This document shows positions 2,751-57,373 of a stretch of 64,000 nucleotides of DNA, piece after piece. The first letter of the stretch is position 1, and each line of letters starts with the position of its first letter. Location: assembly GCF_044324875.1 (NCBI RefSeq), contig NZ_CP172185.1. The stretch is one strand, 5' to 3'. The notes under the pieces are model-generated. The model was not told where the DNA came from, searched no databases, and was given only the letters and a program-made list of their open reading frames with translations. The translations under genes were made by a program, and so were the position numbers. This DNA comes from Escherichia coli. GTDB lineage: Bacteria; Pseudomonadota; Gammaproteobacteria; Enterobacterales; Enterobacteriaceae.

Positions 2751-3113
2751 TTAAAACGCAGTCTTAGAGAACCCTGTCATCTCTTGCAGGCCCATTTCGC
2801 GGCCCAGCGCGGTCATTGGGTGCACAACGACCAGTCCGCGAACGCTCTTCTTCAGTTTGCCCATATCAGCTTGCTCTTTTTTAGTAATCGCGCGCTGGAA
2901 CGGCATCTTCATCAGCTTCTGTGCTTCCTTACTGAGTTTCTGGCTGTGAACTTCGCGCAGGCGAGCAATTTCTGCTTCCAGAGTGGCTTTCTCTTTTTCC
3001 AGTTCAGCATATTTGTCTGCGGCTTCAACCAGCGACAGATCGGCCTGCTGGTGGCGGATGGCGTCCAGACGATCGCTGAGACGTTTGATTTCGTTTTTTT
3101 CGACTTCTTTCAT
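2751..3113 (-). CDS. yibL: YibL, conserved ribosome-associated protein
   Basis: 120-aa ORF beginning [23 protein letters not shown]; position next to mtlR/yibT. Confidence 0.8.
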
Positions 3114-3396
3114 GTGATGGCTTCTGATAAAGATAAATTTATAGCCCCTAGTATGCGCGACCAGGTGCTTTATTCACAACTGATGACATTGCAATAGTTC
3201 TATAACGTAAACATTAACATGCTTAAAAACTACGCAATTTATTGATTAATTAAGAAATTTAAAGAAAAAAGATAGTTAACAAAAGCGGATGATTATTGAG
3301 GATTGAGCACGTTTTCCTTAATGTCATTTATACCGGGATCTAAACTAAAATTGGCGGCCGCGCATTCCCGGCGCGGGGTTATACGGAGATATCATC

Positions 3397-3606
3397 ATGG
3401 GCAAATTAGGTGAAAACGTTCCGCTTCTTATCGATAAAGCCGTAGATTTCATGGCATCGAGCCAGGCGTTCCGGGAGTATCTGAAAAAACTACCTCCCCG
3501 TAACGCGATTCCGTCCGGAATACCTGATGAAAGCGTGCCGTTATATCTACAACGTCTGGAGTATTATCGTCGGCTTTATCGGCCGAAGCAGGTAGAGGGG
3601 CAGTAA
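3397..3606 (+). CDS. yibT: YibT small protein
   Basis: 69-aa [17 protein letters not shown]..., convergent with mtlR. Confidence 0.65.
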
Positions 3607-3617
3607 GCAGGCGTTGC

Positions 3618-4205
3618 TTACTTTTGGAAGGCTTTTTTTAAGCTGATTTTGGAAATCAGCTCTGTCAGTGAAAGGACCATTGTTGATCGCACAGCCTGTT
3701 GGTAACGCTGAATTTGCATTGCATACAAACTGGAGTCTGCAGGTTCAAACTGTGGCGGCGGTGGTAACGCCGCCACGCAATGCAGTTCACCAAAGGGTCC
3801 AAGGATTTCGTCGTCGGTAAACGCGTACTCGTTGCCGTCGTGATTTAGCTCTTCACGCAATGCCATCAGTAGCTCCGCATCTTCGTATTCCTGGCGGTTA
3901 ATGACGCCCAACCCGTAAATGAGTTTTAAACGCACAGAAAGATCGCCCAGCGGACCGTCGCCGTCGAGTAACGGTTCTACAGCATACTTCACCGCGTAAT
4001 CGTCTTTGCGGAATACCTGAAGCACCAGAAGATTTACCGCCTCGGTCAAAAGCTCGACGGCGGTGATCAGAAAGCTTCGCACGGTTTTGCCAGCATTCAG
4101 ACGCTCAAGCACACGGTTTTCAAAGGCCTGGGTTTGTTCCATTGTTGCCTGCATATCTGACAATCTGTTATTCGGGCGCAGGGTATCCTGCGCCTGGTCC
4201 ACCAT
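3618..4205 (-). CDS. mtlR: Mannitol operon repressor MtlR
   Basis: 195-aa ORF immediately downstream of mtlD on the same strand. Confidence 0.9.
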   Translation of the reverse strand: MVDQAQDTLRPNNRLSDMQATMEQTQAFENRVLERLNAGKTVRSFLITAVELLTEAVNLLVLQVFRKDDYAVKYAVEPLLDGDGPLGDLSVRLKLIYGLGVINRQEYEDAELLMALREELNHDGNEYAFTDDEILGPFGELHCVAALPPPPQFEPADSSLYAMQIQRYQQAVRSTMVLSLTELISKISLKKAFQK

Positions 4206-54421: not shown

Positions 54422-54673
54422 CGCTAAATAATAGAGCAACCTTTAATAATCTTCTGCTGAATAAAGATTGTCTCATATATTAATTTTATGAGATTTTTTT
54501 AGGATTATATCAAGGAGAAGAAACGAACTTATTAAGCTAGAATAGCCACGGGTGCTTGAGACTGTTTGTCTCAGGTATTCACCGAAAGGCAGACAGAGAA
54601 AAGCCCCACCTGACTATAAATCAAAGTGTACTGCACCCATTTTGTTGGACGATGAAATGGAATAGCCCCTGAT

Positions 54674-55195
54674 ATGTCAAAGCCAAAATACCCTTTTGAA
54701 AAGCGCCTTGAAGTCGTGAATCACTACTTCACTACTGATGATGGTTACAGGATCATCTCGGCACGTTTTGGTGTCCCCCGAACCCAGGTCAGGACATGGG
54801 TTGCCCTCTATGAAAAACATGGAGAAAAAGGTTTAATTCCCAAACCTAAAGGTGTTAGTGCTGATCCTGAGTTGCGTATTAAGGTCGTGAAAGCTGTGAT
54901 CGAGCAGCACATGTCCCTTAATCAGGCTGCTGCTCACTTTATGCTTGCTGGTAGTGGTTCTGTAGCCAGGTGGCTGAAGGTTTATGAAGAGCGCGGAGAA
55001 GCTGGTTTACGCGCGCTCAAGATTGGCACCAAAAGAAACATTGCAATATCAGTTGATCCAGAAAAAGCGGCATCAGCATTGGAGCTGTCAAAAGACCGAC
55101 GCATTGAGGATCTTGAAAGGCAAGTTCGATTTCTTGAAACGCGGCTTGTGTATCTAAAAAAGCTGAAAGCCTTAGCTCATCCCACGAAAAAGTGA
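54674..55195 (+). CDS. insJ: IS150 transposase OrfA (HTH)
   Basis: 173-aa ORF MSKPKYPFEKRLEVVNHYF...; slippery heptamer A-AAA-AAG at 55156-55162 in frame near its 3-prime end. Confidence 0.9.
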   Translation: MSKPKYPFEKRLEVVNHYFTTDDGYRIISARFGVPRTQVRTWVALYEKHGEKGLIPKPKGVSADPELRIKVVKAVIEQHMSLNQAAAHFMLAGSGSVARWLKVYEERGEAGLRALKIGTKRNIAISVDPEKAASALELSKDRRIEDLERQVRFLETRLVYLKKLKALAHPTKK

Positions 55196-56043
55196 AAGTA
55201 CTCAACGAGCTAAGGCAGTTTTATCCTCTTGATGAGCTTCTCAGGGCTGCGGAGATACCGCGCAGTACGTTTTATTACCATCTAAAGGCTCTCAGCAAGC
55301 CTGACAAGTATGCGGACGTTAAAAAGCGTATTGGTGAGATTTATCATGAGAATAGAGGCCGATACGGATACCGTAGGGTAACGCTGTCTCTTCATCGAGA
55401 AGGGAAACAGATTAACCATAAAGCTGTTCAGCGCCTGATGGGAACCCTCTCACTTAAGGCAGCGATTAAGGTCAAGCGATACCGCTCTTACAGAGGAGAG
55501 GTAGGGCAAACCGCCCCCAATGTTCTCCAAAGAGATTTCAAGGCTACGCGGCCAAACGAGAAGTGGGTTACCGATGTTACTGAATTTGCAGTCAATGGGC
55601 GCAAGCTGTATTTGTCTCCAGTAATAGATCTCTTCAACAACGAAGTTATTTCTTACAGCCTTTCGGAAAGACCAGTGATGAACATGGTCGAGAATATGCT
55701 CGATCAGGCATTCAAAAAGCTTAATCCTCACGAGCATCCTGTTCTGCACTCTGACCAGGGATGGCAGTATCGTATGAGAAGATATCAAAATATCCTTAAA
55801 GAATATGGTATTAAACAAAGCATGTCCAGAAAAGGCAATTGTCTGGATAATGCTGTGGTGGAGTGTTTCTTTGGAACCTTAAAATCGGAGTGTTTTTATC
55901 TTGATGAGTTCAGTAATATAAGCGAACTGAAGGATGCTGTTACGGAATATATTGAATACTACAACAGCAGAAGAATTAGCCTGAAATTAAAAGGTCTGAC
56001 TCCAATTGAATATCGGAATCAGACCTATATGCCTCGTGTTTAA
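55192..56043 (+). CDS. insK: IS150 transposase OrfB (DDE integrase core), expressed by -1 frameshift fusion with OrfA
   Basis: 283-aa ORF in the -1 frame relative to insJ; DDE/rve motifs ([19 protein letters not shown]). Confidence 0.9.
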
Positions 56044-56144
56044 CTGTCCAACTTTTTGGGGTCAGTACAAAGTGAGGCCCCTCTATGCATAGACACCATA
56101 AGGTTAGCCTCTTACTCGTTGGAAATCAACACAGGAGGCTGGGA

Positions 56145-56297
56145 ATGCCGCAGAAATATAGATTACTTTCTTTAATAGTGATTTGTTTCACGCTTTTATT
56201 TTTCACCTGGATGGTAAGAGATTCACTGTGTGAATTGCATATTAAACAGGGAAGTTATGAGCTGGCGGCATTTTTAGCCTGCAATTTGAAAGAGTAA
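56145..56297 (+). CDS. hokA: Hok-family small toxic membrane peptide
   Basis: 50 aa MPQKYRLLSLIVICFTLLFFTWMVRDSLCELHIKQGSYELAAFLACNLKE after AGGAGG SD; an in-frame upstream ATG at 56085 gives a 70-codon mok-like ORF. Confidence 0.8.
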   Translation: MPQKYRLLSLIVICFTLLFFTWMVRDSLCELHIKQGSYELAAFLACNLKE

Positions 56298-56455
56298 GAG
56301 TCTTCGGCGGGAAGTTATTCCCGCCTTTCTTACGGTGTTGGGTATTCTCAATGCACCCTAATTTATTTCTTTAATGAATGTTTTTTTTAAAAATACGAAT
56401 GGATTTGGCTATTAGATAAGTTTTTAATCGGGAACAGGAATGGTTCGGAGCCTTC

Positions 56456-56827
56456 ATGAATAAACTGCTTTTACTGTTGATAATGCTCTATCAACGACAT
56501 CTTTCTCCTCGCAAAGGATACCGCTGTGCTTACAGTGTGTTGTACCAAACGCAGGGATGTTCGGGAGCAGTCAAAGAGATTATTCAACAGAAAGGTGTTA
56601 TTGCAGGCTGGGGCGAGATACGTCAGCGTTTTGCAGATTGCCGACTTGCGGCACAGACAATCAGGCAGAAGCAACACCTGAACGAGGTAATACGTAAAAA
56701 GAAGAATAATAATTGTGATTGTTCCGGGTGCGATGGTGCGGTCTGTCGTGATTGCGACATTCCGGTGCCGGATCTGGATTGTTCCTGGGACTGTTCTTCT
56801 CTACATATAAAGCGTTTTTTCCAATAA
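56456..56827 (+). CDS. YidD-like (DUF37/hemolytic domain) protein with Cys-rich C-terminal tail
   Basis: 123-aa ORF; N-terminal LYQRHLSP...C...KGVIAGWGEIRQRFADC resembles the YidD family pattern; C-terminal CDCSGCDGAVCRDCD cluster. Confidence 0.5.
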   Translation: MNKLLLLLIMLYQRHLSPRKGYRCAYSVLYQTQGCSGAVKEIIQQKGVIAGWGEIRQRFADCRLAAQTIRQKQHLNEVIRKKKNNNCDCSGCDGAVCRDCDIPVPDLDCSWDCSSLHIKRFFQ

Positions 56828-56852
56828 AAAAATCCCCGCCAAATGGCAGGGA
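56826..56852 (-). terminator. Rho-independent terminator of cspA
   Basis: On the minus strand: stem tccctgcc / ggcgggga followed by ttttttt, about 30 nt after the cspA stop. Confidence 0.55.
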
Positions 56853-56880
56853 TCTTAGATTCTGTGCTTTTAAGCAGAGA

Positions 56881-57093
56881 TTACAGGCTGGTTACGTTAC
56901 CAGCTGCCGGGCCTTTAGCGCCGCTTTCGATGGTGAAGGACACTTTCTGACCTTCGTCCAGAGATTTGTAACCATCGTTCTGGATAGCAGAGAAGTGTAC
57001 GAACACGTCTTTAGAGCCATCGTCAGGAGTGATGAAGCCGAAGCCTTTGTCAGCGTTGAACCATTTTACGATACCAGTCATTTTACCGGACAT
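56881..57093 (-). CDS. cspA: Major cold-shock protein CspA
   Basis: 70 aa [38 protein letters not shown] with RNP1/RNP2 motifs. Confidence 0.95.
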
Positions 57094-57373
57094 AGTGTAT
57101 TACCTTTAATAATTAAGTGTGCCTTTCGGCGATATGGCGTGCTTTACAGATTTTGAAGCGTTAAAGGAATGTGCACTACGAGGGGTATCAACGATAACTC
57201 TTGAAGGGACTTGCCTTACTACACTGCTTTAATGGTCTGTACGTCAAACCGTTGATGTGCATTAAGCCACGCATTGGCGGGTGATGCAACAATTATTTTT
57301 CATATTTATGATTAATCGGTTGGAAAACGGTCCTGTCATCAGGACCGTAAACAGCAATAAAGTGGATAAAAGT

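Follow-up and report, generated by a model that had tools for sequence, protein, structure and literature searches.

The window analysed here, a stretch of 64,000 nucleotides from Escherichia coli (NCBI RefSeq assembly GCF_044324875.1, contig NZ_CP172185.1), carries between hokA and cspA a gene for a paralogue of YidD that is distinct from the housekeeping YidD itself. Its membership in the YidD family is close to certain, and the conservation of its reading frame marks the ORF as a functional protein-coding gene. The encoded protein represents a long form of YidD which, as defined by profiles and alignments, is a large, distinct and uncharacterised subfamily of PF01809. Comparison of loci shows that the gene is ancestral in Enterobacteriaceae at its place in the order glyS-(hokA)-gene-cspA and that it was lost from most E. 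coli via a deletion of roughly 380 bp. The best explanation overall, to which we give somewhat more credence than doubt, is a functional ancestral paralogue, mostly deleted, which would act as a membrane-tethered thiolate module. What is new here is the place of the ORF in a distinct and widespread long subfamily, together with the observation that its automatic name probably overstates what is known. The original prediction of a 123-aa ORF between hokA and cspA holds, and the features of the locus are collected in Table 1.

Table 1. Features of the long-form YidD gene and its surroundings (positions in the window)
Feature	Position	Strand	Evidence or remark
ORF, 123 aa, ATG to TAA	56456-56827	+	long YidD-family paralogue; ORF list
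Residues 1-66, YidD-type helical core	56456..56653	+	invariant C24, C35, C62; motif YQRHLSPRKGYRCAY...GCSG...IRQRFADC
Residues 67-86, end of long helix (48-85) and basic patch IRKKKNNN	56654..56713	+	AF2
Residues 87-113, Cys/Asp-rich segment CDCSGCDGAVCRDCDIPVPDLDCSWDC	56714..56794	+	7 Cys, 7 Asp; includes IPxP element
Residues 114-123, hydrophobic/basic C-terminus SSLHIKRFFQ	56795..56824	+	short helix, low-confidence prediction
Shine-Dalgarno GGAG, 5 nt before ATG	56447-56450	+	sequence; kept in 5/5 aligned Escherichia alleles
Upstream intergenic stretch, conserved	56326..56455	+	alignment of Escherichia alleles
hokA intrinsic terminator	56306..56325	+	terminator scan; cuts ORF off from upstream transcription
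cspA intrinsic terminator, stem 56829-56856, T-tract 56819-56828	56819..56856	-	terminator scan
Segment missing in K-12 and ~98% of complete E. coli	56441..56822	.	alignment of window, K-12 and GF4-3
hokA	56145-56297	+	upstream neighbour of ORF
cspA	56881-57093	-	convergent neighbour of ORF

The resemblance to YidD that had been read from the N-terminal part was borne out by profile searches. PF01809 (Pfam) matches residues 3-63 with an E-value of 1.1e-5, and TIGR00278, the NCBIfam equivalog for YidD, scores 75.8 bits (cut-off 40) over residues 3-69, with an E-value of 1.7e-21. Both strings on which the resemblance had been based, YQRHLSP and KGVIAG, are in the translation, and the same applies to the Cys/Asp-rich tail CDCSGCDGAVCRDCD, with cysteine making up 26% of residues 87-113. 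When a profile of 137 relatives was aligned with one of 15 canonical YidD proteins from enterobacteria, hhalign gave a probability of 97.4% and an E-value of 1e-11 over 59 columns and lined up all three family cysteines of the two forms. C24, C35 and C62 of the window protein correspond to C31, C37 and C64 of E. coli YidD; the first two are invariant and the third is invariant or nearly so in the long-form alignments (A2, A3). PF01809 was matched by 135 of the 137 long-subfamily members, while no Pfam family other than YidD was found in them at E<=0.001. A Pfam match of the tail to DUF5363 was rejected as not significant (E 0.36).

As the ORF scores above the curated TIGR00278 cut-off, PGAP and UniProt name it YidD, and RefSeq and UniProt do so wherever the gene occurs. 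The exact protein is already in NCBI under this name on 110 contigs, with close variants in E. fergusonii and Escherichia sp. E4736. The original expectation that reference annotations have no gene at this position is thus right for K-12-type genomes and wrong for carriers, since RefSeq calls yidD in every carrier sampled; the gene was intact and annotated in 60 of 60 sampled carrier rows. Because the equivalog names both forms alike, genomes appear to have two copies of yidD, and the shared name implies a function that, for the long form, is putative. The UniProt and AFDB entries for “YidD” proteins of 100-200 aa belong to the same subfamily as the ORF protein and are the top Foldseek matches to it, with 26-60% full-length identity. 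Examples are A0A564KCZ2 of Klebsiella huaxiensis and proteins of Vibrio cholerae, Pseudomonas amygdali, Beggiatoa and cyanobacteria, all automatically named and none with a described function. A search of the literature on YidD turned up no work on the long form. Even canonical YidD is not well understood, and a structure has been solved for neither form; a second subfamily whose Cys-rich module is conserved provides a starting point for understanding the role of the three invariant core cysteines and of the fold.

Canonical YidD (E. coli b4557, 85 aa; PF01809, formerly “haemolytic domain” or DUF37) is encoded in the cluster rpmH-rnpA-yidD-yidC. It is reported to be a small protein, peripheral on the inner membrane, which improves YidC-dependent insertion (Yu et al. 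2011, cited in PMC8082313). Contact with nascent chains is a further trait of the housekeeping protein. Both forms have a hydrophobic first helix and the motif YQR.[LI]SP, but the ORF protein is only 33% identical to K-12 YidD over 57 aa, with one 5-residue gap (BLASTP). This gap reflects a 5-residue insert between the first and second family cysteines that characterises the long form: their spacing is 6 in canonical YidD (CRFTPTC) and 11 in 209 of 214 long-form members, whereas the second and third cysteines are 27 apart in both. The two spacings of 11 and 27 occur in 209-211 of the 214 long-subfamily members. The third cysteine lies in KCHP in canonical YidD and in ADCR in the window protein, and the signature motif reads LGPHCRF in the former but SPRKGYRCAY in the long form. 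Proteins of the YidD superfamily that consist of the domain alone have about 70-100 aa; the 123 residues of the ORF protein exceed this, as it adds to the core 57 residues with a basic patch and 7 further cysteines, an extension that canonical YidD lacks.

The two genes differ equally in place and retention. Canonical yidD lies by rnpA and yidC in its own cluster elsewhere in the genome, whereas the ORF is convergent with cspA, and a tblastn search around 80 long-form loci of other species found no yidC, rnpA or rpmH within 5 kb. Canonical yidD is universal, being present at >=99% identity in 5424 of 5426 complete E. coli genomes, while the long form is an accessory gene found in 112 of these 5426 genomes (2%), always chromosomal and in single copy. 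It follows that at least 110 of the 112 carriers have both genes. The long form is also the faster-evolving of the two, with 60% identity to its Klebsiella counterpart, as compared to the 72% that canonical YidD still retains to that of distant Providencia.

These differences bear on the possibility that the ORF encodes a redundant second YidD, which would aid YidC- or Sec-dependent insertion like the housekeeping protein and whose tail would be dispensable. A score above the curated equivalog cut-off, the three retained family cysteines and the YQR.[LI]SP motif would all be expected of such a protein. On the other hand, the long form never adjoins yidC, rnpA or rpmH, canonical yidD co-occurs in essentially all carriers, and the low identity is accompanied by an altered spacing of the first two cysteines and the absence of a CHP motif. 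In addition, 211 of 214 members from different phyla have kept a tail with at least three cysteines, a sign that the tail matters. A redundant YidD is therefore considered unlikely.

The history of the gene can be followed from its surroundings. The distance from the hokA stop to the cspA stop is 186 bp in K-12 and 583 bp in the window, and the missing stretch begins 15 nt ahead of the ATG and extends to base 1 of the last sense codon. The K-12-type deletion thereby takes the Shine-Dalgarno sequence and, of all sense codons, spares only the final two bases of the last one. In Escherichia, E. fergusonii, Klebsiella and Superficieibacter, the ORF is convergent with cspA and ends 46-53 nt from the cspA stop, a conserved position that covers several E. 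coli backgrounds and one divergent Escherichia lineage; in Superficieibacter, the long-form gene follows glyS at a distance of 67 nt. The same position and orientation across genera show that the gene is ancestral at this locus and that the arrangement of most E. coli is a derived deletion. For E. coli, this amounts to a clean presence/absence polymorphism adjoining cspA, which is among the most strongly expressed cold-shock genes. In Klebsiella, an ABC-F gene (539-541 aa) on the same strand lies 87-119 nt upstream, between hok/glyS and the YidD-like gene (L003 4263-5882; L005 4295-5914; L022 3274-4899); its best NCBIfam match, “ribosomal protection-like ABC-F”, reaches 336.9 bits and falls below the cut-off of 380.

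Conservation of the reading frame in relatives, proposed from the start as a check on the ORF, was found in Escherichia, Klebsiella and Superficieibacter, at dN/dS values clearly below 1. Full-length homologues have 83-90% identity in other Escherichia lineages and 50-62% in Klebsiella, Pluralibacter and Superficieibacter, and the indels in the reading frame across Escherichia, Klebsiella and Superficieibacter are in-frame only. Against a 130-aa Escherichia allele, which is longer by an in-frame insertion of 7 codons, the Nei-Gojobori method gave dS 0.33, dN 0.069 and dN/dS 0.21. Against diverged Escherichia alleles, the core (residues 1-66) has a dN/dS of 0.11-0.14, while the tail evolves faster (0.28-0.64). 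Within the tail, E. fergusonii and several E. coli alleles have Tyr in place of Cys109 (C109Y) and other Escherichia alleles have Cys in place of Trp111 (W111C; codons 109 and 111, window positions 56780-56790), so that Escherichia alleles have between 6 and 8 tail cysteines.

The region 56290-56470, which contains the upstream intergenic stretch, has a mean column identity of 95% among Escherichia alleles. The search for a promoter upstream of the ORF that had been suggested earlier found no sigma-70 consensus site between the hokA terminator and the ATG, and a relaxed scan yielded only weak 8/12 candidates, none of them convincing. At the other end, the stop codon had been thought to lie within the cspA terminator hairpin. 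The boundaries of stem and T-tract place it otherwise: the last codons of the ORF and its TAA (56825-56827) fall in the T-tract, the stop lying 2 nt outside the stem. The Rfam match to cspA mRNA (56826-57253, minus strand) overlaps the stop codon of the ORF by 2 nt. On the plus strand the cspA hairpin also forms, but without a U-tract; as no terminator is evident for the ORF itself, its transcripts may run antisense into cspA.

Such a restricted distribution could be taken to mean that in E. coli the gene is a decaying relic, whose frame has stayed open although expression and usefulness have ceased, and which is heading towards loss. Only 112 of 5426 genomes carry it, 98 of these at >=99% nucleotide identity to the ORF region of the window, and no consensus promoter is seen upstream. 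Some pairwise dN/dS values within E. coli are near or above 1, although they rest on very few changes and are noisy. Furthermore, frameshifted copies occur in Escherichia and Klebsiella (P0002, P0010, P0012, P0014, P0018), which implies that gene loss is still under way and, together with the absence from 98% of E. coli, that selection is weak or conditional. A relic is nevertheless hard to reconcile with the low dN/dS of the core against diverged alleles, with the intact state of the gene in all sampled carriers, with the intact and syntenic copy in E. fergusonii or with the conservation of the Shine-Dalgarno sequence and the 130 bp upstream. This makes decay in E. coli a quite improbable account of the ORF as a whole.

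Beyond the enterobacteria, the long form is widespread. A 23-member profile, run against a search space of 1.84 billion proteins, retrieved 2404 representatives (clusters at 50% identity) at E<=1e-3 and 1835 at E<=1e-10. A narrow peptide pattern, run on 100,044 species genomes, found 130 relatives, which are spread over Enterobacteriaceae, Rhodobacterales, Burkholderiales, Neisseriaceae, Deinococcus, Abditibacteriota, Actinomycetes, cyanobacteria and Planctomycetota. The range of the long subfamily takes in Proteobacteria, Actinomycetes, Deinococcus, cyanobacteria and at least one phage-like contig. Its architecture is constant, with the YidD-like core followed by a helix with a basic patch and then by a tail rich in Cys, Asp and Gly; at the basic patch, half of the subfamily has 5 or more K/R within 10 residues. 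In 214 members, the tails have a median of 65 residues and 7 Cys, with 10.8% C, 9.9% D and 9.9% G, and CxC is present in 160 and CxxC in 102 of them. Actinomycete (L052-L099) and Deinococcus (L037, L050) tails are short with the near-invariant end GVCCCG[PG]IPIPFRF, and cyanobacterial members end in GCIVIPCCIPI. An [IVL]P.P element is found in enterobacterial tails as well. C-terminal ends comparable to that of the window protein occur in relatives as LRFKGYRK, GVLLRRKKR and IPIPFRF. Metagenome-assembled genomes contributed a 261-aa protein of Arenicella (L027 2084-2869), which continues beyond its Cys-rich part with basic residues, a hydrophobic segment and a further C-terminal region, and a tandem of two long-subfamily genes in a member of the Deinococcales (L045, about 3000-3800).

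Clustering of the neighbours at 80 loci revealed no partner gene common across phyla, the contexts being lineage-specific. In Rhodobacterales, 10-13 loci (among them L025, L028, L033, L034, L039, L040, L043, L048, L053 and L066) share an operon of an acyl-CoA dehydrogenase, a GST-family gene, the YidD-like gene, a thiolase and a FadB-like gene. At 6 of 10 of these loci, about 4 nt separate the end of the GST-family gene from the start of the YidD-like gene, and at the others the gap is 38-92 nt. No match of the GST-family gene comes near the curated cut-offs; the best ones include GSH-dependent disulfide oxidoreductase and maleylacetoacetate isomerase. One 197-aa member (L009 4261-4854) lies on a phage-like contig of many small unannotated ORFs, adjoining Hydrolase_2, a cell-wall hydrolase. 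A phage or defence role for the ORF was considered and set aside, with a non-significant match in PHROGs (E 0.088) and none in PADLOC.

The layout, with a basic linker between a conserved N-terminus and a hypervariable C-terminus rich in Cys, is superficially that of a RiPP-type or secreted peptide, in which the YidD-like part would serve as leader and the C-terminus as modified core. Neither the 80 loci nor the enterobacterial ones have a recurring radical-SAM enzyme, cyclase, protease or exporter as neighbour; the gene is found by cspA and glyS in enterics and by beta-oxidation genes in Rhodobacterales, and its N-terminal part forms a folded domain, a homologue of YidD. A RiPP precursor is thus highly improbable and was rejected. 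That the ORF arose by chance in an AT-rich intergenic region, for which only its absence from K-12 could be cited, is refuted by the HMM match at E 1.7e-21, the homologues across phyla and the purifying selection, leaving a negligible residual probability.

For the functional paralogue favoured here, structure prediction gives some indication of how the parts might work together. AF2, run with the 137-sequence alignment, predicts an all-helical core with helices at residues 2-16, 25-30, 35-46 and 48-85. Confidence is high for residues 21-80 (pLDDT 88-96) and low for residues 99-113 of the Cys region (pLDDT <50), which is modelled as unstructured. A C-terminal helix covers residues 114-122 in one model and only 118-120 in the model from a deeper alignment, with low confidence. 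Foldseek against AFDB50 returned only proteins of 100-200 aa automatically named YidD or “hemolytic domain”, and a family-profile search of the PDB and a fold search found no solved structure matching the long form by sequence or by fold.

The mechanism proposed for the paralogue starts at the inner membrane. Residues 1-66 would fold as a YidD-type helical domain and be held on the cytoplasmic face by hydrophobic helix 1, a location suggested by homology with canonical YidD. Membrane association of canonical YidD was reportedly found by Yu and colleagues in 2011 (J Bacteriol 193:5242), who also used insertion and cross-linking assays. The hydrophobic stretch has only 9 residues, which is too short for a transmembrane helix, and is directly followed by R and K. 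A Sec signal peptide was rejected on the same features and on the homology of the stretch to helix 1 of YidD. The short stretch, the basic residues after it and the one fused relative in which a basic and then a hydrophobic segment come after the Cys region all point to a cytoplasmic location, in which case the 7-Cys cluster would be reduced. The long helix and Lys-rich patch would lead to a loop of 27 residues with 7 Cys and 7 Asp (CxC, CxxC), which is predicted to be disordered alone and would most likely either fold around soft metal ions or an Fe-S cluster or cycle between thiol and disulfide or glutathionylated states; thiol chemistry is favoured by the GST-family partner in Rhodobacterales. 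The hydrophobic/basic C-terminal end may then return the loop to the membrane. The protein would thus act as a thiolate module tethered to the membrane and not as a reserve copy of YidD, and would be dispensable in E. coli. That this mechanism is right in outline is a tentative proposition, to which we give less than even weight.

The metal binding suggested earlier for the tail is putative and is inferred from its composition; a Pfam search of the 137 members found no similarity of the tail to known metal-binding families. Bacterial metallothioneins such as SmtA/BmtA and MymT likewise have short stretches rich in cysteine, with CxC and CxxC motifs, which remain disordered until they bind metal. 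The high cysteine density and these motifs are found in the long form too, but Pfam does not place it in a metallothionein family by sequence, and unlike metallothioneins its Cys stretch is Asp-rich and fused to a membrane-associated domain, so that the likeness is one of analogy only. A similar analogy without homology exists to eukaryotic cysteine-string proteins and S-acylated anchors (CSP, SNAP-25, GAP-43), which also combine a basic patch, a Cys cluster and hydrophobic residues close to a membrane; in the long form, the Actinomycete end GVCCCG[PG]IPIPFRF is an instance. In bacteria, no S-acyltransferase is known that modifies such motifs. In its most far-reaching version, the thiolate module would define a widespread unrecognised family in which the YidD fold is only a membrane tether for a thiolate-rich “cysteine string”. 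This string would buffer soft metals or be reversibly glutathionylated or S-acylated at the inner membrane face, with a dedicated GST-family partner in Rhodobacterales, and would be unrelated to YidC-assisted insertion, making the name “YidD” a misannotation of thousands of proteins. This version is speculative and rather doubtful.

Several smaller features of the locus were recorded alongside the gene. An IS150 element at 54627-56069, between a sok match and hokA, is flanked by a 3-bp duplication (AAG) and followed by the segment 56070-56113. It is inverted with respect to the K-12 copy at the same locus, and about 44 bp of the hokA leader that are missing in K-12 are kept in the window; the inverted orientation and the retained leader suggest an independent IS150 insertion or a rearrangement. 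The Rfam match to sok (RF01794) at 54550-54703 on the plus strand covers the full model with 86 bits, but its 3' half aligns poorly and the real similarity ends at the IS150 junction (54627), so the sok RNA gene is apparently truncated by IS150. The small ORF ysaE of the K-12 annotation (MRNAVSKAGIISRRRLLLFQFAG; 56274-56345, minus strand) has its start codon changed from ATG to ATA in the window. hokA is intact in the window (50 aa), while it is flagged as frameshifted in the carriers GF4-3, XJ5.2 and CUPF09. Finally, the protein WP_000014594.1 is called either cspE (“transcription antiterminator/RNA stability regulator CspE”) or cspA across RefSeq records, a naming inconsistency seen at the loci L001, L002 and L017-L020.
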